This document shows, piece after piece, positions 3,432 to 13,925 of a stretch of DNA of 18,037 bases (the stretch's first letter is position 1; every line of letters begins with the position of its first letter). The DNA is from a virus. The stretch lies in the IMG/VR virus record IMGVR_UViG_3300031565_014477. One strand, given 5' to 3'. The notes below the pieces were generated by a model. That model did not search any database and was not told the origin of the DNA. It was given only the letters and a program-made list of their open reading frames with translations. The translations under genes were made by a program, and so were the position numbers.

Positions 3432-3909
3432 TGCTTTTGAAGAAAATGTAGTAGACGACGAAGAACTTATGGAAGAAGGGGAAAACGGGGGAGAAGGGGA
3501 AGAAGGGGAAAACGGGGGAGAAGCTACCCCGCTCAAGAAAGATAATGAAAAGATTTTAGGGACATGTTCGATATCGGATTACGAAAAAGCATTCCACAAG
3601 ATCTTTTTAGAGCTTTTAGATTACGGTAAGGGGTTACACAACGCTAAAGAAAGTTTCACTACCGCTCTTTTGAATACAGGCTCCCGAGAGAACCCACAGG
3701 ACGTTTACGAATTTATGGATCTTTTTTCTTCCCGGATCGAGAAAATCCATATCGTCAAAAGGTTGTGTGTGATGTTAGGATTACACAGCGAAATGGATGC
3801 TATCATCAATCACGAAATGGAACTTATTTATAACCGGCCTTCAAAGCCTCGAAAGTCTTTTGTGATGGATTCTGGTGGTATCGTAGCTGGTGATATTAGA
3901 CAACAATAA
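3424..3909 (+). CDS. hypothetical protein with acidic Gly/Glu-rich N-terminal repeat
   Basis: The start is coupled to the upstream stop. A 24-nt direct repeat encodes EEGENGGEGEEGENGGE (about 3469-3528). Confidence 0.65.
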   Translation: MADAFEENVVDDEELMEEGENGGEGEEGENGGEATPLKKDNEKILGTCSISDYEKAFHKIFLELLDYGKGLHNAKESFTTALLNTGSRENPQDVYEFMDLFSSRIEKIHIVKRLCVMLGLHSEMDAIINHEMELIYNRPSKPRKSFVMDSGGIVAGDIRQQ

Positions 3910-3918
3910 GGGTATGTA

Positions 3919-4554
3919 ATGACTGAAATTAACGAGACTAAAGAAGAAATCAAGAAGCTTGTAGTGTTCGTCGCCGCCGAAAGAGACCAAGCTGGGAATT
4001 ATTCCCCGGTCCTGGACATGGTAGAACAAACAAGTGGTGTTATTCTACTACATAATCAATATGACTATGCAAATGTGAAGGGGCGCGAAGTATTAAGCAA
4101 TTTTGAAACGGCACCTCCGACTGATCCCCACCCTTGGGAACAAAGCTTGAGGCAGGATTTTTGGGGCATACAAGAAGCTGATATAGTCGTATTGGACCTC
4201 GACAGCTTAAACAGTGTACACTTTATGGCAGTAGCAGCTTTATACCATAAGCCGATGGTTGCGGTGTCATCCACTTTAATCTCAGTACCTGCATACTTTT
4301 CCGGCTCCGTAGATCTCATAGTGAAGCCTGGGGAAGTTTTAAACAGTATCAGTTATGCGTTGACCCGACGCGAAGAAAGATGGCTGGCTGCGGAAGCTGA
4401 GACCAAAGCGAAACTTGAAGATGATGCAAAGTTTAAAGCATCGTTATCGGATGCCAACACTTCCACAAAAGTTAAAATGCAAGATATCTTACAGCGATCG
4501 CTTCAAAAGACTCTAAGCAAAATGGACCTTCCTGTAGAGGGTAGCGTCAATTAA
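3919..4554 (+). CDS. Rossmann-fold protein resembling nucleoside 2-deoxyribosyltransferase (NDT)-like family
   Basis: The N-terminal strand KKLVVFVAAERD resembles KTIYFGAGWF. The core ADIVVLDLDSLNSVHFMAVAALYHKPMVAV resembles the NDT motif D-I-M-L-x-x-x-D...G-x-E-x-G-x-A...K-x-V. The catalytic Glu is replaced here (HF-MAV). The stop overlaps the next start (TAATG). Confidence 0.3.
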   Translation: MTEINETKEEIKKLVVFVAAERDQAGNYSPVLDMVEQTSGVILLHNQYDYANVKGREVLSNFETAPPTDPHPWEQSLRQDFWGIQEADIVVLDLDSLNSVHFMAVAALYHKPMVAVSSTLISVPAYFSGSVDLIVKPGEVLNSISYALTRREERWLAAEAETKAKLEDDAKFKASLSDANTSTKVKMQDILQRSLQKTLSKMDLPVEGSVN

Positions 4555-5342
4555 TGGATTACTATGCCACTTTAGGTTGTAAGTCTGATGATCCGCCTGA
4601 TGTTTTACGCAAAGCATGGCGCAAGCTGTGCTTGGAACATCACCCGGACCACGGAGGTGATATCGATAAGTTTTTAGAAATCACCCACGCCTATCGGATG
4701 ATCACCGATCCTTCCTACGCTAGGAACCAAAAAAGCCAGCCGGTGAGGGATTTAACTTTCAATATCCAGATGATCGTTTCTTTTGGCGACGCTTTTTACG
4801 GTACCAGATTAGTAGTGTCTTACAATCAAATCACTTTGAATGCGAAGCTAGAGCCTCTTAAGACCACCGAGATCGAGCCAGTAACATTTGCTTTTGATTT
4901 GCCCCCTGGGGCACTATCTTTCAGGTACATCGAAAAAAGTAAAGGGAAAAAGTTTAATAATCAAACTGGAAATGCTGTGGTAACCGTTATCACAGAAAAA
5001 CATCCTAGGTATACGGTCAAAGGCATGGATGTGTTTGTGGAAGAGAAGGTGCCCCTTGAGACGATTCTAAAAGGCGACTACATGACTGTTGAGACTTTAT
5101 GGGGGGTCAAGACTACTTGGGTGCCGCCGGGAACGTTGCCGGGGGAATCGTTTCGTGTGGTGGGGTGCGGGGTAGACAAAAAGGGTCACCAATATTGTAA
5201 GATAAAAGTCGTCTACCCTGACAAGGACGATCTTAAGAACAAAGATACCTGGAAATCGCTAGGGATTAATTGGGCCAAAACGGATAAGCAAAACAAAGAA
5301 GATGAGGAATTATTTAAGAAATTCGAGCAAATGAAAAAGTAA
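4554..5342 (+). CDS. J-domain (DnaJ/Hsp40-like) co-chaperone, no Zn-finger region, with DnaJ-CTD-like β-rich C-terminus
   Basis: The sequence DYYATLGC...DVLRKAWRKLCLEHHPDHGGD...FLEITHAYRMITDP is a canonical J-domain with the HPD motif. Downstream, FGDAFYGTRLVVSY resembles the DnaJ C-terminal substrate-binding domain. Confidence 0.8.
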   Translation: MDYYATLGCKSDDPPDVLRKAWRKLCLEHHPDHGGDIDKFLEITHAYRMITDPSYARNQKSQPVRDLTFNIQMIVSFGDAFYGTRLVVSYNQITLNAKLEPLKTTEIEPVTFAFDLPPGALSFRYIEKSKGKKFNNQTGNAVVTVITEKHPRYTVKGMDVFVEEKVPLETILKGDYMTVETLWGVKTTWVPPGTLPGESFRVVGCGVDKKGHQYCKIKVVYPDKDDLKNKDTWKSLGINWAKTDKQNKEDEELFKKFEQMKK

Positions 5343-5405: not shown

Positions 5406-7661
5406 ATGGTTGATATCCCGAACCCTAAAACACAAACTCCGTTCCAATTTCGAGAAGATGCTAATCAAGTCTACTATCATGATTTGAAGATTTTCATACA
5501 AGGTGCGGACGTTACGCCTTGGATCACTTCTGCGGTCAACCTAACAAGAGGCGACCGTAACGTGGTGAGTTCGCTTACATTCCAATTATCGAATGCTTAC
5601 CGAGCTTTTGAAATTACCGAAACAAATTTGAACCTAGGCGATCCCACAAGTAAGGTAGACGAAATTACGGGACAAAGCATTACCCGTGAAAGACAAAAAT
5701 CTGATGATGAACGGGACAAGGGCAAAACCACAAAAGGCCCTAATACGGGAAGAATAAAATCAGCAGGTACCTTCAGGCTATCCGATCCTTATGGTGCGGG
5801 TGCGGGTTATTCCGAATTGGCCAAAGCTACTATTTTCAAAAACAAACTGGAAAGCAATACCAATTGGCGTCACGGGGTGGCTAAGTTCGGTACCTACAGC
5901 AAAGGAAACACCCGAGGTGGAGCTTTAGCGGATTCGGATGCTGTAAGGGATGCTAGTAGCGCTACAGGAGCCACCACACCTCGGTATTTATTTACCGTGG
6001 GCTCTTTAGTTTTTCATAAATATGACCCGGTTCGATTCTTTGTAAAAAATCCACTAAGTGCAAGTGACGATGAATGGTCTTGTGAATTTGCAGGATATAT
6101 CGAAACTAAACCCTACTCACAAAATTATATCAATGGCCATTCTATAGTAAGTTTGACATGTCAGGACATCCGAACTTACATGCAGACGATGCGAACCCAA
6201 ACTAATCCGGTAGCTCAAATCGGTAATGAAAAGATGCTTTTCTTTGGGAATAACAAAAATGATGTTCCCGGTACTGGCGATGCTGGAGCCTTTAACGATT
6301 TGAGAATATCAGGTCGGGCGGGGCATTCCTTGTATGGGCAAACTTTTGTAGAGTCGATCAAATTCCTTTTATTAGGTGTTAAAAAGAATGGTGCCTATAA
6401 CGGCAGGGTCGGTAAATTAACCGAAGGCATCACCTTAAAGTATGATCCCAACGATAGCGAAATCAAAAAGAAGCTCACCCTAGAAAAATGGAATAATATA
6501 GTAAATTTCGGCACCTATCCTTTGCCGGTAACGGACGATGCAACACCAGAACAACCTGAAGGTGCTACTACCAATGCGACGGGCGGAGCACCAAACGTAC
6601 CAACAAAGGAACAAGAGGCGGAACAGTTCCCTAAAGGGGCAGCGGCCAGGGCTGGCAAATTGGGAATTGAGATCGAGAAATTTTTGACACGAGCCCAAAT
6701 GGAAAAAATGGGCCAAGAAACAAAGGACGGTGGTCAGTTTTCACCCGATGTAGCTCGCGTCCATTTTTTAGTACCGCCTGACCTTGGGCCTGTATCCAAT
6801 TTAATAGCTGCTTCTATGGTGGATGCTCGGGTATCTGTCCGGGTTGAATGGGCATCTCGTTTGGAATTGATAATCCAGCTTTGCAAAGCTATAGACTATC
6901 AATTTTATGTAACAGGTATGGGGGATGTTGTTTTTGAATTCCCTATGTACGATTTTATGCCCACTGATTTTAATAGCGTTTATAATAATATCTATACATT
7001 TCAAAGGCATGTCGTATCTGACAGCATCAATGATGAAGGCGGTACGCCCATAACAGCTTTAGAAGTGACCTCGCGGATTCTAACAGATGAATTGGCACAA
7101 GGTCACCCATCGACGCCCGGTTCCGCTCCGGTACAAAATTATGAATTACGCGCAACTGCTTTTTCAAATGTTTTGGCTTCGAGGGTTGGAGTTCATGTTG
7201 AGACACACTCATTGCCAGGTATTACCAGCCACGCTAGATTAGCCCAATATGCCTTATTGGAATTTAATAAGCGTCTTGCTAATTATAACAAATTCGATAT
7301 GCAAGTATCTTACAGACCTTTCATAGGTATCAACAGGCCTATCTATCACCAAACGAAACAAAGAGTGGCTATCTGCGATTCATTTACCTATAGTTGGAAA
7401 ATCCGAGAAGATGTATCTTTGGAAATGAATTTGTCCTACGTTCGTAGATTAGAAGGTGAAAATTTCCGATTTATAACAGGTGGGGAAAAACAGCCTCTTT
7501 CTTACAATACAATTTTCGATACTAAAAAATCTGCTACCCACCTTAAGTCGGTGGGTGTTGATGTATTCACTAATGAAACAGATGAAAAACCAGGCGGTAA
7601 GAAGAAAACAGTTCAAGAAGAAAAGACAGACCCAACGCAGTCCAAAGAAGCAAATCCTTGA
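5406..7661 (+). CDS. large (751 aa) hypothetical protein, possibly virion/baseplate component (hub-like?)
   Basis: ATG 7 nt after AAAGAG. It has no enzymatic motifs. It sits immediately upstream of a gp5/VgrG-like spike gene, which is the position a gp27-like hub usually occupies. The function is inferred from context only. Confidence 0.3.
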   Translation: MVDIPNPKTQTPFQFREDANQVYYHDLKIFIQGADVTPWITSAVNLTRGDRNVVSSLTFQLSNAYRAFEITETNLNLGDPTSKVDEITGQSITRERQKSDDERDKGKTTKGPNTGRIKSAGTFRLSDPYGAGAGYSELAKATIFKNKLESNTNWRHGVAKFGTYSKGNTRGGALADSDAVRDASSATGATTPRYLFTVGSLVFHKYDPVRFFVKNPLSASDDEWSCEFAGYIETKPYSQNYINGHSIVSLTCQDIRTYMQTMRTQTNPVAQIGNEKMLFFGNNKNDVPGTGDAGAFNDLRISGRAGHSLYGQTFVESIKFLLLGVKKNGAYNGRVGKLTEGITLKYDPNDSEIKKKLTLEKWNNIVNFGTYPLPVTDDATPEQPEGATTNATGGAPNVPTKEQEAEQFPKGAAARAGKLGIEIEKFLTRAQMEKMGQETKDGGQFSPDVARVHFLVPPDLGPVSNLIAASMVDARVSVRVEWASRLELIIQLCKAIDYQFYVTGMGDVVFEFPMYDFMPTDFNSVYNNIYTFQRHVVSDSINDEGGTPITALEVTSRILTDELAQGHPSTPGSAPVQNYELRATAFSNVLASRVGVHVETHSLPGITSHARLAQYALLEFNKRLANYNKFDMQVSYRPFIGINRPIYHQTKQRVAICDSFTYSWKIREDVSLEMNLSYVRRLEGENFRFITGGEKQPLSYNTIFDTKKSATHLKSVGVDVFTNETDEKPGGKKKTVQEEKTDPTQSKEANP

Positions 7662-7682
7662 AAACGATATTGGTGGTGGATA

Positions 7683-9290
7683 ATGCCCAACTGGGATCAA
7701 GAAGCGGTGCTAGATGAAGATAGAGACGACGCGCAACGGAAGGCACTTCGGTTCCCCTTCGGCGCACAATTAATAGCAATAGCAAGCGAATCCGAAAGCG
7801 GGGTCTTTTCCCATTATGGGAATCAGGCTCAAGTACTAAGCTTAACCCACCCGTTTATCTCCCAAAGATCTTGGATTCGGGGGATGCCAGAAGGTGGTAC
7901 TAATTATGTCTTACAATTCCGTGCTGATGAAGCTAAGCCGCAAATAATAACTTCTGTTCAAAGGGGTGTAAAAAAGAAGATAGAGAGTTACCGGCAAGGT
8001 AATTCTTTGTATCGTCCTTTGCTTCCCGGCGAAATTGATATGTTATCGAGCGGCGTAGCCCAGGTATTCATGAGCCGTCGCCCTACTTTGGATCTGTATG
8101 GTGGCATGGTCCGTCGGTGGGCTGATCAAGATAAGATGGTAGCGGGCGACCGTGCCCCTATCCACCTTCGCCAAGGCTTACAATACCGGTCTAATGCCTT
8201 AGGTGATGAAGAAAGATTCGGGGTGGTGTCGCGCCCTAAAGAAAATGAGGACGGTACTTTTTCTTCTTGGGAAAAAAATTATCCCAAAGTTCGAGGCAAT
8301 TTCACCGCCGAACACTATCAACAGCTAAAGAATCCCAGTAACGCCGAACCAGAAGTTTTGTTCCGTAAACAATCAGGCCACGTATTGAACCAACGTGGAT
8401 TCCCTATAAGCCATTCCCGAACCGGAAATGCGTTAAGGCACGTAGAAGAATATTTTGATAATGAAGATGATTCCACAAAAATTGAGATCGATGAAGCCGG
8501 TAACTATGCTGTTACCTTAAGTCCCGGTGCCGCCGTAGGCTTTGAATTCAATTCTCCTAGTGGGGGATTTGGGCGTGTCGTAGGTTTGGACGAAAAAGCT
8601 ACCATACGCGGGGACATGATTTACGGCATCCAAAAAAATGCCATCTTTAAAATTGGTGAATCTTTAAGGTTTAGTATAGGCGGATTATTCGAAATAGCTT
8701 CCCGAGGCGGAGGTCAAAGATTACAGTTTTCGGATATACCAGGGGAAACCATGGTCGCGCTCACCACAGGTGGGGGCCATTCCATGATCTTCGATGACAC
8801 CAAAAATAAGGAAACTATCAATATCATACATAGCTCCGGGGCTCGTAACACGATGAGCAAAGATGGCTCTGTTAAGATCAACGCCGGGGACGGTTCTAAC
8901 CTATTCATGAACGCCGCCAACTTAACGACATCACTTACTTCAGGCTTCGGCACTTACGTTTCTATGGGAAAAGATGTTAGGCTTGTGTCCCCGTTCCAAG
9001 CTTTGATATTAGATGGGTTAACCACCGCACAGTTAACATCAAATGTAAATATTTTACTTAAAGCTCCGAAAGTGGAGATCTCAGGCGGGGCGATAGCACT
9101 CGGAGCTTTAGCAGCCTATAGCGCTACCCTGGCGGAGCCTTTAGCTTTGCTCTTCGATGCTCATATCCACGCAACGCCTACGGGGCCTAGCGGACCACCC
9201 TTACCCCCGAATACAGCAGCCTTGTTCAACGCTACCCCGGCTACTTCCTTTGCAGCCTTGTTTGTAAAAGTAAAAGGAAATACACCTTAA
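7683..9290 (+). CDS. baseplate central spike / VgrG-gp5-like protein with C-terminal β-helix and HxH apex
   Basis: The region HSMIFDDTKNKETINIIHSSGARNTMSKDGSVKINAGDGSNLFMNAANLTTSLTS...NILLKAPKVEISGGAIAL resembles the gp5/VgrG β-helical repeats. I recall T4 gp5 having ...ISIKAPSISLSAP... in the matching place. The terminal DAHIHATPTGPSGPP resembles the metal-binding HxH apex of gpV-type spikes. Confidence 0.5.
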   Translation: MPNWDQEAVLDEDRDDAQRKALRFPFGAQLIAIASESESGVFSHYGNQAQVLSLTHPFISQRSWIRGMPEGGTNYVLQFRADEAKPQIITSVQRGVKKKIESYRQGNSLYRPLLPGEIDMLSSGVAQVFMSRRPTLDLYGGMVRRWADQDKMVAGDRAPIHLRQGLQYRSNALGDEERFGVVSRPKENEDGTFSSWEKNYPKVRGNFTAEHYQQLKNPSNAEPEVLFRKQSGHVLNQRGFPISHSRTGNALRHVEEYFDNEDDSTKIEIDEAGNYAVTLSPGAAVGFEFNSPSGGFGRVVGLDEKATIRGDMIYGIQKNAIFKIGESLRFSIGGLFEIASRGGGQRLQFSDIPGETMVALTTGGGHSMIFDDTKNKETINIIHSSGARNTMSKDGSVKINAGDGSNLFMNAANLTTSLTSGFGTYVSMGKDVRLVSPFQALILDGLTTAQLTSNVNILLKAPKVEISGGAIALGALAAYSATLAEPLALLFDAHIHATPTGPSGPPLPPNTAALFNATPATSFAALFVKVKGNTP

Positions 9291-9293
9291 GGG

Positions 9294-9902
9294 ATGACTT
9301 GTACATCGATCGTCAGTGTTATACCTGGGGGTACCGGGCACGGTAACGAAGGAATCTCGATATCTGGAATTCCTAAGAAATCCAATAGCAGCCCTAAAAG
9401 AAAATCTAAAGGATCTGGGGGTGGGAATGGGATCGGGGGCAACCCCGGTATAATTATCGGAGGGATCGGTGGCAACAGATCAAATATGTTCAGCGAGAAC
9501 GGACACGGCAACGAAGGGATCTCTAAAGGGAACGGTAAACCCAAAGCATCCAATAGCAGCCCTATAAGAAAATCTAAAGGATCTGGGGGCGGGAACGGGA
9601 TCGGTGGCAACCCCGGTATTATAATTGGCGGTATCGGTGGCAACAGATCAAATATGTTCAGCGAGAACGGACACGGCAACGAAGGGATCTCTAAAGGGAA
9701 CGGTAAACCCAAAGCACCTAACAGTAGCCCTAGAAGAAAATCTAAAGGATCTGGGGGTGGGAATGGGATCGGGACATCAAGAGGTAATGTGACTCTAAAA
9801 GGTATTTTAAATAATTCGAAACCTGCGGCTTCCACGGTGAACGTCACCACTAATGTAGACAACTCAACCCCCTATCACAGATGTAGTAGATTAGATAACT
9901 GA
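9294..9902 (+). CDS. Gly/Asn/Lys-rich low-complexity repeat protein (2.6 tandem 55/56-aa repeats); strand assignment uncertain
   Basis: It starts 4 nt after the spike stop and shares orientation with every neighbouring gene. The repeat period (165/168 nt) is a multiple of 3. A fully open antisense ORF (9287-9862, Pro/Leu-rich) shares its wobble positions, so sequence alone cannot decide between the strands. Confidence 0.4.
   Translation: MTCTSIVSVIPGGTGHGNEGISISGIPKKSNSSPKRKSKGSGGGNGIGGNPGIIIGGIGGNRSNMFSENGHGNEGISKGNGKPKASNSSPIRKSKGSGGGNGIGGNPGIIIGGIGGNRSNMFSENGHGNEGISKGNGKPKAPNSSPRRKSKGSGGGNGIGTSRGNVTLKGILNNSKPAASTVNVTTNVDNSTPYHRCSRLDN
9339..9773. repeat. tandem direct repeat, unit 165/168 nt, about 2.6 copies, roughly 90% identical
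   Basis: The copies start at about 9339, 9504 and 9672 (cacggYaacgaagg...cagcgagaacgga). The differences I tallied within the conserved stretch (9417-9470 versus 9585-9638, and 9584-9610 versus 9752-9778) fall at third codon positions. The repeat preserves both frames. Confidence 0.85.
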
Positions 9903-9992
9903 TCAACATCCTGTATTTTAACTGCCTCCTAGTTATCTTAACTTTAAATCATCGTTTTGGCAGAAATTCTACCTGGGAAGGTGACAATCATA

Positions 9993-11693
9993 ATGGAAGC
10001 TCGACGCAAACAAGAACTAAGGTCTCTGATACACACTATCCCGTCATTGGTAAAAGCCCATTTGGTGAACCAAGCCTTTGAGACAGAGACCATCATAGCA
10101 TCAACTTTTCAACTTTCGGAACCGTTTCGGGTGCTGATGCACAACATCCCGCAAAATTACATTGAGAATATCGCTTCTTGGTATTCAAAGTTGTCCTTCA
10201 AAGCTTTTCAAGGCGGCTTAAATAATGCCAAGCTGAAATTGGAAACAATAAACATGACCGCCCCTGCCGGGGAAGAACGCGAAGAAGAGATCAAAACTAA
10301 GATACCTATGCCGTATACTTTATCCCAACACCTAGCTAAGACCTTCCAAGACAATATTGGAAATCTTGTCCAAACCGTGCCGAATTCCTCCGATATTTTT
10401 GTACAATTCAAAAAAGATCTCGAAAAGGCTTATCGTGACGGTGTCTCGGAACATCTCAAGATGCTTGACGAAGAAAAAGAACAAGAAGAGGAACAACGAG
10501 AAGAGGAAGAAAAGCACGATGTAGTAGACGGTACTGAATTTGAAGATGATGCTGAAGAACGTGATGAAGAACGTGATGAAGAACTAGAAGAATTCGAGGA
10601 AGAAGATATCGACGACGAAGCTGCGATGGAAGCTGAAGAAGATATCGACGAAGAGGCTTTTTTAAAAGAATTATTGGACGAGATAGAAAGCGAGCCTACA
10701 GTGGGTCGTGATGAACAGATCGACACCCCTGTAGAAGGGACAATAGGAGAAAGTATGAATAAAAAGTTGGCGTCTAAGTTGAGACGAGACCCAGTCTTAG
10801 CTGATGTAACCCCTAATGAGGTTCTAAGGGCCTTAGAAGAATACACCAAGATCCCAGGTGACGCAGAAGCCGAAATGGTTCTCCGATATACCTTGGGGCT
10901 TCCCCCGGCAGGAAAGCCGAAAGCTGAAAAACCAAAGGTCGAAAAGGTTGAAAAGGCCCCAAAGGCTACAGCTTCTATGAAGCGAAGCATTGTACGTGGT
11001 GGCAAGGTTATAGGTCCTTATGATACCCAAGCGTTGAGACAAAAGGTCAAGGCTGCTGCTAAGACCCATGTACTGGATGACAATGACCTTCAAACAATAG
11101 TGATTGATTCGATCGTTTCTGATATTGATCAAATGGGTTCCAAAGAAGCTGCCCAAGCCATCGCCAAGAAGTTAGGTTTTTCAGAAGCATTAGCTTCCAA
11201 AGAGATCTCTTTGCAAGATGTTAAGAGCCGTTCTGATGTCTTAGCCCAAAAGCTGACCACTTCTTTAGGTTTGCCAGGTGAAATGATCTTTTTAGATGTT
11301 GATGGTGACTATTTATTAACTTTCGCCTTTCATCGATCCGAAGCAGCCAAGCTAAGTGACGAAGCCGGTTCTACTGTTAGAGCGGCCAAGATAGCCAAAA
11401 GGCGTCCGTTACCTAATAATCCGCAAGGGGTGTTATCAAAAAGAGATCAAGTTCAGATTTCTTCCTTGGCTGATTTAAGCAAAAGCCGAACGATGCGTGA
11501 TATCCGAAAAGCTTCCCCTAAAGTCGCAGCTTATCTTAATGATGTTCTTAAAAATATCCGTATTGGTCGCGTAGGTTTATCCGAGGGATCTTCCAAGCTC
11601 CGGGCGAATATTTCGGACGTGATCGCCGAAGTTTTTGGGATGGACGGTTTAGGTTACTTTGAATACTTAACCACACGTAAAAAGAGAGCTTAA
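9993..11693 (+). CDS. hypothetical protein with about 60-aa poly-acidic tract and Lys-rich KPKxEK segment
   Basis: The ATG at 9993 follows GGAAGGTGA. The track ORF begins at TTG 9957. The tract EEKEQEEEQREEEEK...DDAEERDEERDEELEEFEEEDIDDE contains a 15-nt duplication. It also has PAGKPKAEKPKVEKVEKAPK. The C-terminal 300 aa look globular. Confidence 0.7.
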   Translation: MEARRKQELRSLIHTIPSLVKAHLVNQAFETETIIASTFQLSEPFRVLMHNIPQNYIENIASWYSKLSFKAFQGGLNNAKLKLETINMTAPAGEEREEEIKTKIPMPYTLSQHLAKTFQDNIGNLVQTVPNSSDIFVQFKKDLEKAYRDGVSEHLKMLDEEKEQEEEQREEEEKHDVVDGTEFEDDAEERDEERDEELEEFEEEDIDDEAAMEAEEDIDEEAFLKELLDEIESEPTVGRDEQIDTPVEGTIGESMNKKLASKLRRDPVLADVTPNEVLRALEEYTKIPGDAEAEMVLRYTLGLPPAGKPKAEKPKVEKVEKAPKATASMKRSIVRGGKVIGPYDTQALRQKVKAAAKTHVLDDNDLQTIVIDSIVSDIDQMGSKEAAQAIAKKLGFSEALASKEISLQDVKSRSDVLAQKLTTSLGLPGEMIFLDVDGDYLLTFAFHRSEAAKLSDEAGSTVRAAKIAKRRPLPNNPQGVLSKRDQVQISSLADLSKSRTMRDIRKASPKVAAYLNDVLKNIRIGRVGLSEGSSKLRANISDVIAEVFGMDGLGYFEYLTTRKKRA

Positions 11694-11695
11694 TT

Positions 11696-12283
11696 TTGCC
11701 CTTACCTCAGCCAATCACATTGACGCACTTCATCGACATTCACCGTGAGGAGTTTGTGAAGTTCGAACTTTGGATATCCGAAGAGTTGACGCAACATTTG
11801 ATCGAAGCCCACAATTTAGATCCGGCTTTCACCACTGTTGTCGTAGACATGGACGAAGAAGAGCCGGTGGGTAAGAGTGTTGATAGCATTGTGCTGTTAA
11901 GGTTGAACGGGCGTTTCTACATGCCGCTAAAGGACAAACAAGGCGTGGACCTTGAGCTTACGGCGGAAAAGTGGATTGAGTCCGCAAAGGGCTGGTTCGA
12001 CGAAAATGAAGTCGAGGTTACCTTTGACGAAGATTCCAATGACCTTATCAAATTTACAGCCTTCGTACCGGGTGTCGAATTACCGGAAACGGAAGAACCC
12101 GCAGCGGAAGAAGGGGCCGAAGAGCCTGCCGATGAAGGCGAAGAAGCTGCCGATGAAGAGCCTGCTAAAGAAGGCGAAGAAGGTGCTGATGAAGAGCCTG
12201 CCGATGAAGAGCCTGCCGATGAAGGCGAAGAGGGTGCTGATGAAGAAGGTTTGAAAGAGTTCGAAGACGCATTAGGTCTGTAA
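11696..12283 (+). CDS. hypothetical protein with highly acidic repetitive C-terminal tail (EEPADE/GEEGADE units)
   Basis: TTG start 7 nt after AAAAGAGAG. The start is uncertain. An 18-nt tandem repeat at about 12110-12250 encodes a 60-aa stretch containing only E, D, P, A, G and a single K. Confidence 0.6.
   Translation: MPLPQPITLTHFIDIHREEFVKFELWISEELTQHLIEAHNLDPAFTTVVVDMDEEEPVGKSVDSIVLLRLNGRFYMPLKDKQGVDLELTAEKWIESAKGWFDENEVEVTFDEDSNDLIKFTAFVPGVELPETEEPAAEEGAEEPADEGEEAADEEPAKEGEEGADEEPADEEPADEGEEGADEEGLKEFEDALGL
12110..12250. repeat. imperfect 18-nt tandem repeats (gaagagcctgccgatgaa / ggcgaagaaggtgctgat) encoding poly-acidic tail
   Basis: Seen directly in the sequence. It also produces a spurious Ser-rich antisense ORF (11917-12375). 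Confidence 0.8.
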
Positions 12284-12298
12284 ATAAAAGGGTTTAAC

Positions 12299-12679
12299 AT
12301 GAGTAAATATATCGAAACTTTGCACGAAGAGATCGAAACCCTGCACGAAGTTTTGAATACTGAAATCGACCGCAAGATCGCAACAGGTGACTATGATAGT
12401 TTGGAGTCTACCCCTGCGGACATGTCAGCCCGATATTGGTTGATGCAATTCTTAGAACCCTTAAGTCGGAAAGAGCTTAAGAGTGTCGTAGACGGATTTC
12501 TAGTGCAGCTATTGAATGACGAACAAGCCAAAAAGCTAGTGAAGTTTTTGTTAGTGCGGTTTCCTGGTTATTACAACGAAGGTACCGCAGAAGGTGAGGG
12601 CGAAGGTGACGAATGCCCTGGGAAAGACGACGGTAGCATCGACGTTAGCAAGGCAATCAAGTTTCAGAATAGAGGATAG
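12299..12679 (+). CDS. hypothetical protein
   Basis: ATG 7 nt after AAAGGG. It has an internal 21-nt duplication (IETLHEE/IETLHEV). TAG stop. Confidence 0.65.
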   Translation: MSKYIETLHEEIETLHEVLNTEIDRKIATGDYDSLESTPADMSARYWLMQFLEPLSRKELKSVVDGFLVQLLNDEQAKKLVKFLLVRFPGYYNEGTAEGEGEGDECPGKDDGSIDVSKAIKFQNRG

Positions 12680-12682
12680 GCC

Positions 12683-13408
12683 GTGGCATTTGATAAAAAG
12701 AAACAAAAGATTTTCACCGTCTATGTAGAAGCTGTTCGTAAGAAGGGAGATTCTTTCGACTTTTACAAGTCTGCCAAAGCTTTCGACAAGCTTTTAGAAA
12801 AAGTTGGCTTGTCGCTAAAGTCGAATCAATTCTTCCGGGAAGTATGGGACGAATTAGACGATCCGAATAGCCGCTGGGACGTAACGGAAGAAGACCTCGG
12901 AACTTTTCTGGACGTTATGCCTAAAGATCTTTTAAAACGAAATCTTACAAAAAACATTATCCAAAAAAAGATCAAACCGGCGGACCAAGAAAAATACGAA
13001 AAATTAATAGCGATCATGAAGCCGCAAGCTCAAGCCAAGTTCCTTGCCAAAAACAAAATGACTTCGGCTACTCCGGTAATGTTTACCAAAGTCAAAGATG
13101 GTAAATGTATTATAAGAGCTTTTCTAGGCAACATCACAAACAAAGTTGGGATGCCTAGCAAAAGCGCATCGGGTTCCTTGTACCGGGATTTTTATGATGC
13201 TCTCGAACAAGAGATCGGGCGCAAGAGCTTGCAAAAAGCGATAGCCTATGTGGTACCGCAGATCGAATTCAACGTCGTAGATTGGCCTAATATGTCCACG
13301 TTGGAAGATGCCAGGTACGAAGTAGAATTCTATTTCGAACCTGATGAAACTCTACTGCAAAATTTAGCGGATGCCGTGGCGCTAACCGTAGAAGGCTTTG
13401 TTAACTAG
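12683..13408 (+). CDS. hypothetical protein
   Basis: GTG start after AGAGGATAGG. It is a 241-aa ORF. Its 3' end overlaps the convergent minus-strand gene by 8 nt. Confidence 0.65.
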   Translation: MAFDKKKQKIFTVYVEAVRKKGDSFDFYKSAKAFDKLLEKVGLSLKSNQFFREVWDELDDPNSRWDVTEEDLGTFLDVMPKDLLKRNLTKNIIQKKIKPADQEKYEKLIAIMKPQAQAKFLAKNKMTSATPVMFTKVKDGKCIIRAFLGNITNKVGMPSKSASGSLYRDFYDALEQEIGRKSLQKAIAYVVPQIEFNVVDWPNMSTLEDARYEVEFYFEPDETLLQNLADAVALTVEGFVN

Positions 13409-13925
13409 CCCATAATTTTTCCCCGCGCAACACATAGCTGTTTATCGCTTTGATCACTTCAATTCGAAGGTCATCGGATTGTTTTAAAGCAAAATTAAAT
13501 AATTTGTAATCTGTGGATTGGGCTAACATAGCTTTTCGCAATACCGACGATCGTGACTTCGTAAAAACTTCCAACCACAAACTAGCCTCTTTATGTTTAC
13601 CCAAAAGCTCTAATTGCTTCGGTAAATTTCTTTTGATCCTTATAATTTGAAGGGCGGGGCTTTCCTTGGTCGTGGTTTTCGCTACCCGTCTTAGGACCGG
13701 CTTCTCAACCGCTACCTCCGCTGGCTTTTCAGCCACTTTGACTACGCTTTGTATTTGGTGGATCGCCCAATTTTCCAGCAAGTTGTACTTCAGATTATAT
13801 TCCTTGGCTATGGCGGCGATAGCGAACGTTAAGTTTCGGCTGGAATCTTTGTGGGTTTTGATGGCTTCCAGGATCGTTTGCTTGTGTTTTAAGAGCTGTT
13901 CTAAGTCTTCTGTTAATATTGACAT
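13401..13925 (-). CDS. hypothetical protein with probable helix-turn-helix segments (possible transcription regulator)
   Basis: It is the only minus-strand gene inside the 13-kb plus-strand block. RNLTFAIAAIAKEYNLKYNLLENWAI and SSVLRKAMLAQSTDYKLFNFAL look like HTH motifs. It is divergent from the downstream + gene. Confidence 0.5.
   Translation of the reverse strand: MSILTEDLEQLLKHKQTILEAIKTHKDSSRNLTFAIAAIAKEYNLKYNLLENWAIHQIQSVVKVAEKPAEVAVEKPVLRRVAKTTTKESPALQIIRIKRNLPKQLELLGKHKEASLWLEVFTKSRSSVLRKAMLAQSTDYKLFNFALKQSDDLRIEVIKAINSYVLRGEKLWAS

Follow-up and report, generated by a model that had tools for sequence, protein, structure and literature searches.

Shadow ORFs, the spurious antisense ORFs that lie opposite real genes, are already a well-known phenomenon and form the basis of the AntiFam and Spurio concept (PMC5897793). 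Work on Pseudomonas aeruginosa under the title "Shadow ORFs illuminated" has reported antisense ORFs that are translated and under purifying selection (bioRxiv 10.1101/2021.02.09.430400). The locus considered here, beside the spike gene of an uncultured phage, shares features with both. Like the shadow ORFs of Spurio and AntiFam, it has a long, stop-free antisense ORF that was publicly called as a protein, while the homologous DNA of relatives has stops. What sets it apart is that the shadow ORF begins with an ATG and exceeds the real gene in length; it also lies on the operon strand, since it is the real gene that is inverted. As with the P. aeruginosa overlapping genes, a real gene contains a long ORF on its antisense strand and the two reading frames overlap; the difference is that the antisense frame here is unconstrained and is not conserved in close relatives.

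Adhesin tips of the gp38 type in T-even phages are Gly-rich and adopt polyproline-II structure. The plus-strand translation of the present locus (GNGIGGNPGIIIGGIGGN) superficially resembles such Gly-rich motifs, but this frame is non-coding here. PAAR-repeat tips (T4 gp5.4 and the PAAR proteins of T6SS) offer another likeness, in that a small protein gene lies by the spike and three repeats could give pseudo-threefold symmetry. Unlike those tips, the protein encoded here is Pro/Leu-rich and has no Pfam PAAR similarity, and its neighbours are spikes with an HxH motif. According to PMC12407873, which cites Browning et al. 2012, this C-terminal motif is the mark of self-tipped spikes of the P2 gpV type, which have their own Fe-loaded apex and were proposed to lack a separate tip protein.

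The window is the whole stretch of DNA that was analysed, 18,037 nt from IMG/VR virus record IMGVR_UViG_3300031565_014477. The features at the centre of the analysis are as follows.

Positions 9287–9862, minus strand: real gene; its product is 191 aa long, Pro/Leu-rich and built from three tandem repeat units (homology, intact frame, purifying selection, SD-like tract).
Positions 9294–9902, plus strand: shadow (antisense) ORF of 202 codons, Gly/Asn/Lys-rich, with an ATG start (no constraint, broken in relatives, open by composition).
Positions 9335–9773, no strand: tandem repeat array with a period of 168 nt, a first unit of 165 nt and ~2.6 copies, the units being 92–95% identical.

Taken as a whole, the locus is with high probability explained by a minus-strand gene at 9287–9862 that belongs to an unannotated family and has been inverted within its operon, the plus-strand 202-codon ORF being its shadow. 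The coding strand, the pattern of selection, membership of the family and the inversion are shown by sequence comparison. The original prediction had offered two alternatives, genuine dual coding or a repetitive protein under purifying selection on one strand. The second has held in its general form, except that the strand is the minus, Pro/Leu-rich one, and the idea of the plus-strand Gly-rich ORF as that gene is to be dropped.

The repeat itself was described accurately at the outset. Tandem Repeats Finder detected a single array at 9380–9773 (period 168, 2.3 copies, 92% matches, no indels, score 690), and repeat similarity extends 5′ to 9335, with the first unit spaced at 165 nt, for a total of ~2.6 copies. 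This agrees with the predicted in-frame 165/168-nt repeat with a unit of 55/56 codons and ~2.6 copies, and with the predicted 3-nt indel between copies, which is seen as the 165-nt spacing of the first unit. The third-position differences described for the conserved half of the unit were likewise borne out, as eight of the nine differences between the two full units fall there and the ninth at a first position. Both strands are open as reported, with peptides correctly quoted for the plus and minus products, and the third codon positions of the two ORFs coincide ((9860−9294) mod 3 = 2).

Relatives of the locus were located via the adjacent spike protein. Downstream of the spike, L002 (spike 46% identical), L003 and L004/L005 carry a Pro/Leu-rich repeat protein on the spike's own strand, tightly packed with its neighbours. 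The minus-strand product of the window starts (M)STLVVTF...IPFRVTLPLDVPIPFPPP and ends ..ITLTIDVQVIP, while the L004 protein has the N-terminus MATLVTTF...FPVRVPIPGLPSIPFPPP and the C-terminus ...TVTISTSIE. The two align end to end, non-repetitive termini included (residues 1–189 against 1–151, E = 1.4e-7 in blastp with composition-based statistics). For pairs of relatives, the Pro frame gave E-values of 2e-28 (L002–L004) and 1e-17 (L003–L004), against 1e-8 and 1e-3, respectively, for the Gly frame. A database search with the minus-strand product recovered P0001 (83% identical, 191 aa) and P0002 (54%, 190 aa, ATG start), both intact, and further hits, namely P0003, P0004, P0007, P0009, P0010, P0013, P0014 and P0015, came from 1.84 billion representatives searched with a profile. 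In the exhaustive search, profile E-values for family members ranged from 1e-47 to 1e-11. P0010, which is 37% identical to the window protein, and P0014 are both undisrupted, with 214 aa each.

The resulting family comprises P0001–P0004, P0007, P0009, P0010, P0013 and P0014, together with the proteins of L002, L003 and L004. Homology among members is full-length, with a shared N-terminus (M-A/S-T-L-V-x-T ... R-V-P) and C-terminus (..V-x-V/I-x-I/V-E), and the window protein has the two to three tandem units with an I-P-F-P-P-P/S motif that characterize the family. Its IPFPPP motifs lie at residues 32, 88 and 144 of 191, and each unit carries IPFPPPDPLDFL..LPSLPCP; in the protein, a β-hairpin-like N-terminal segment is followed by three 56-residue units and a C-terminal strand. 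Searches of Pfam, PHROGs and PDB with both frames and the family members returned no consistent match, and blastn and tblastn against GenBank phages found no cultured-phage relatives. The AlphaFold2 models built from 6 and from 10 sequences had mean pLDDT values of 38.5 and 44.5, respectively, too low for fold comparison. In family loci the repeat gene lies beside or near an HxH-type spike gene, the P0002 lineage excepted. Judged by similarity and gene context, this is a small, unannotated family in the spike/hub (baseplate) module of uncultured contractile-tail-type phages. An uncharacterised Pro/Leu-rich repeat family of this module, mostly with three units, is a modestly new element of the present work.

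Repeat units from one genome resemble each other (92% in the window, 80% in L010) more than units from different genomes do (70–74%), which indicates that they are probably kept alike inside each genome by concerted evolution. Such within-genome homogenisation shows that units do recombine, and unequal recombination between in-frame units that are 92–95% identical would preserve the reading frame. It is thus conceivable that gain and loss of the 168-nt unit acts as a phase-variable length switch, as the original prediction had proposed. The chance of this appears very slim, as alignment A5 shows about three units in its 10 family sequences and L002 also has about three (against two in the shortest members), protein length is the same in the window and L010, and copy number is equal among contigs assembled from different samples. 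With the three-unit architecture kept in this way across the family, the length switch finds no support.

Substitutions distinguish between the two frames. Over 576 nt, a gap-free alignment of the window with L010 shows 72% of nucleotides to be identical, and the differences fall at Pro-frame codon positions 1/2/3 in the numbers 39/12/110, the usual coding order for the Pro frame and the reverse of it for the Gly frame, which argues that the Pro frame codes. At the protein level, 160/191 residues are identical in the Pro frame, compared with 132/191 in the Gly frame. Jukes-Cantor dN/dS was unusable because synonymous sites are saturated (pS = 0.78), and the comparison relied on uncorrected proportions and on rates normalised by opportunity. 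Per mutational opportunity, the rate was 0.280 for changes silent in both frames, 0.223 for those silent only in the Pro frame, 0.055 for those silent only in the Gly frame and 0.034 for those non-synonymous in both (binomial p 1.8e-4; 6.5e-6 with the reciprocal reference). As 0.223 is near 0.280 and 0.055 is near 0.034, altering the Gly protein is almost cost-free and silence in the Gly frame brings no benefit. The same asymmetry was replicated in the diverged internal units of L002 (10 vs 0). As estimated from these rates, purifying selection is on the Pro frame, and the Gly frame imposes no detectable constraint. An opportunity-normalised substitution test of this kind separates dual coding from a shadow ORF. 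Synonymous codon usage, at 0.033 vs 0.019 bits per codon for the two frames, lies within the range of the antisense frames of real genes and did not separate them.

The same data bear on the notion that neither strand codes and that the repeat serves the phage purely as DNA, for instance as a structural element or regulatory array. The sequence is indeed repetitive and of low complexity, and structure prediction yielded no confident fold, but the strong codon-position periodicity of substitutions and a pN/pS of 0.13 in the Pro frame make this scarcely credible. The ORF is moreover intact and length-conserved, and its conserved start, SD-like tract and termini persist to ~27–37% protein identity.

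A second line of evidence is the state of the Gly frame in relatives. In L010 this frame is without an ATG (GITF replaces GMTC) and has one internal stop, although the Pro protein is 83% identical and intact. Internal stops number three in L013/L015 and two in L017, and the ATG is absent; the Pro frame is intact in 10/10 lineages examined. Disruption of one frame in relatives had been named beforehand as the observation that would speak against dual coding, and it was found in L010, L013/L015 and L017. A database search with the Gly-rich product, which includes the peptide GSGGGNGIGGNPGIIIGGIGGNR, returned only itself (P0016).

Signals around the two starts also differ. The minus-strand gene begins at a TTG (9862) that aligns with the ATG of homologues, and the L010 start is also TTG. 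An SD-like GGGGG lies 5 nt upstream (GGGGG-ttgag-TTG), a pattern seen in the window's other genes, and a purine-rich SD-like tract occurs 4–8 nt upstream of every Pro-gene start examined. A sigma-70 consensus scan of 9200–10100 gave no promoter match, and none was thus identified for the minus-strand gene. The ATG of the plus-strand ORF is 3 nt after the spike TAA, with an AAGGG that abuts it without a spacer, unlike the window's other genes.

These observations make dual coding, in which both proteins would be made and functional in this lineage, very improbable. If real, the overlapping plus-strand gene would be young, having arisen when the inversion moved an open antisense frame onto the operon strand behind the spike stop. 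The plus-strand ORF is open for 202 codons, co-directional with the operon and identical in four contigs, and an ATG so close to the spike TAA could permit termination-reinitiation. The ATG and the open frame are nevertheless lost even in the relative with an 83% identical Pro protein, changes to the Gly protein alone occur at nearly the rate of fully silent ones (0.223 vs 0.280 per opportunity), the product is without homologues, an open frame is expected in 74% of shuffles (see below), and the AAGGG has no spacer before the ATG. Genuine dual coding is hence unsupported, on the grounds of the stops and lost start in relatives and of the substitution rates. The variant in which the overlapping gene is only now being born de novo, so that ribosomes terminating on the spike gene re-initiate and make the 202-aa Gly/Asn/Lys-rich protein from a new ATG, in this one lineage and while selection is still undetectable, likewise has only a very small chance of being correct.

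It might instead be argued that only the plus-strand Gly-rich ORF is a gene, with a spike-tip or fibre-like product, and that the minus-strand similarity is a compositional artefact. That ORF is the longer one, has an ATG start, shares the strand of its neighbours and was chosen by gene callers on four contigs. Against this, minus-strand homology spans the non-repetitive N- and C-termini, survives composition-based statistics and reaches a profile E-value of 1e-47. The Gly frame, besides being broken in relatives, changes at its position 2 three times as often as at its position 1 (39 vs 12), the reverse of coding. A gene on the plus strand only is thus extremely improbable, and the coding strand is taken to be the minus strand.

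The consequence for public data is direct. Gene calls on four ENA contigs (P0016; L007–L009) took the Gly-rich ORF and omitted the minus-strand gene; on the sister lineage's JGI contigs, which have a broken shadow ORF, the Pro frame was called instead. P0016, a 202-aa public database protein, is by these comparisons very probably spurious. The main value of the analysis is accordingly corrective, in that it points to a probably spurious P0016 and to a real gene on the opposite strand that is missing from those annotations.

How so long an antisense frame can stay open is explained by amino-acid composition. In an antisense frame with shared wobble positions, only sense Tyr, His or Gln codons can face a stop, since a stop requires T-TA, C-TA or T-CA at positions 3-1-2 of the sense strand. 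Neither Tyr nor His occurs in the 191-aa protein, and Gln occurs once, so that the shared-wobble antisense frame stays open by composition alone. When the codon order of the minus-strand gene was shuffled, 74% of the shuffles left this frame stop-free. Across ten family members, it contains 0–4 stops, versus 5–23 in the other two antisense frames, and for the spike gene the equivalent antisense frame yields 3.2 per 100 codons. The openness of the plus strand is not beyond chance once composition is counted. The locus thereby serves as a worked example of how amino-acid composition alone yields a full-length antisense ORF with shared wobble positions.

Orientation is the other unusual property of the gene. 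Synteny between the window and L002 extends over a hub-like protein (751/682 aa), the spike (535/535 aa), the repeat gene, a 578/449-aa protein and an acidic protein; the order is conserved, and the repeat gene of the window points opposite to that of L002. In the window, the stop of the minus-strand gene (9287–9289) overlaps the spike TAA (9288–9290) within TTAA, and the two genes are convergent. The inverted layout also occurs in L010–L012 (spike 75% identical), L017 (48%), L018 (44%) and L013–L015. Inverted members have a subfamily signature consisting of an additional amphipathic segment and one LPCP cysteine per unit. In L013 (5696–6172, minus strand) and L015 (2276–2782, minus strand), both of the P0002 lineage, a 168-aa gene is convergent with the repeat gene; since it replaces the spike as convergent neighbour, the module has undergone further rearrangement in that lineage.

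The LPCP cysteines of the window protein (residues 64, 120 and 175, one per unit) recur in P0001, P0002, P0010 and P0014, and the co-directional subfamily is without them. They may jointly bind a metal or form a set of disulphides about a pseudo-threefold axis.

Within each lineage the repeat gene has one fixed orientation, the same whichever sample a contig came from, and searches around 9287–9956 and around the L002 repeat gene detected no flanking inverted repeats. Constant orientation and the lack of such repeats point to an old, fixed inversion, not to an assembly error or an invertase switch. An invertible segment of the Gin/Cin/Hin type was considered and rejected, with no flanking inverted repeats and a single orientation per lineage, and none of ten window proteins scanned against Pfam and PHROGs matched a recombinase. 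The inversion of the repeat gene has placed the shadow ORF on the operon strand, and an ORF on that strand that, in this lineage, has its ATG 3 nt past the spike stop is what gene callers pick. A clade with a stable single-gene inversion inside an operon is, like the family, modestly new. Elsewhere in the window, a 174-aa gene at 13401–13925 (minus strand) also runs against the plus-strand series, an orientation kept in L007, L008 and apparently L010.

The inversion leaves a divergent spacer.

Positions 9863–9992, no strand: divergent intergenic region of 130 nt between the repeat gene (minus strand) and a 566/578-aa gene (plus strand, ATG at 9993).

Within it, a conserved block, CTTAACTTTA, lies at ~9934–9947 on the plus strand and reads AAAGTTAAG on the strand of the repeat gene. 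It occurs in 5/5 inverted lineages (window, L010, L013, L017 and L018), 42–47 nt upstream of the start of the 553–578-aa gene, while its distance to the repeat gene varies from ~40 to 86 nt. Given a constant spacing to the 578-aa-type gene and a variable one to the repeat gene, the block more probably serves the former. It may be a promoter or leader element of the 553–578-aa gene, one that would be needed because the operon is broken by the inverted gene. The block is overlapped by an imperfect inverted repeat (9888–9900 / 9931–9943). A role for the conserved block (GTTAAGATAACTA) as a recurrent promoter motif was rejected, its recurrence in the window not being above chance.

What the repeat protein does can be approached through its neighbours, above all the spike.

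Positions 7683–9290, plus strand: spike-like protein of 535 aa (weak match to phrog_430; HIH 42 residues from the C-terminus).

The spike weakly matches phrog_430, baseplate hub/tail lysozyme (E = 3e-4), and its match to the T4 gp5 β-helix is very weak (E = 0.62). In co-directional L016 and L004, the repeat gene lies between the spike and a protein with the Pfam domain Phage_tail_tube_init, and these neighbours place the repeat gene in a contractile-tail hub/baseplate module. We infer from this gene neighbourhood that the repeat protein would be a structural or assembly component of the hub–spike complex. The presence of three units beside a trimeric spike suggests a monomer that could match the threefold axis, as PAAR proteins do.

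The original prediction had pointed out that the slot after the spike is often occupied by spike-tip or PAAR-like proteins. That idea has lost ground, as every spike of the group carries, 41–42 residues from its C-terminus, the HxH of self-tipped spikes. Spikes with a blunt β-helix end and no apex domain, the expected partners of a PAAR protein, were not found among them. Neither frame nor any family member matched PAAR in Pfam, even at E ≤ 1, and there was no PDB match. A PAAR-like cap, considered for the sake of the three repeats, was down-weighted by the apex motif of the spikes. With HxH in all spikes, the repeat protein is unlikely to form a PAAR-like tip; it may act at another point of the axis or during assembly.

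Gene content between the spike and the repeat gene varies. An extra gene for 178–191 aa is found there in L003 (6579–7154), L004 (6438–6995) and L016 (943–1479), all on the plus strand, and L002 has a 71-codon ORF (7611–7826, plus strand); the window's clade has nothing at this position.

Several other genes of the window deserve mention. Just upstream of the hub/spike genes, 4554–5342 (plus strand) encodes a full DnaJ-like co-chaperone, with a J domain and DnaJ_C (Pfam E = 1e-9 and 1.5e-15), and this gene is conserved in L007, L008, L010 and L011. Short acidic tandem repeats occur in genes neighbouring the repeat gene, including EEPADE-type repeats with 15–51-nt periods and GGAAGAAGG with a 27-nt period; the sites are 12118–12247, in the gene 11696–12283 (plus strand), as well as 10471–10620 and 3471–3523. 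Antisense frames of these acidic-repeat genes also give long spurious ORFs, for example 10430–11005 and 11917–12375, both on the minus strand. Finally, 16325–17995 (minus strand) encodes a Major Vault Protein shoulder (PF11978, E = 3e-26) with a Vault_3 repeat and SPFH/Band_7 domains. This MVP-like gene is conserved in related contigs (L010/L011, 1–109, plus strand, 884-aa product), and an MVP-like protein is unusual for a phage.
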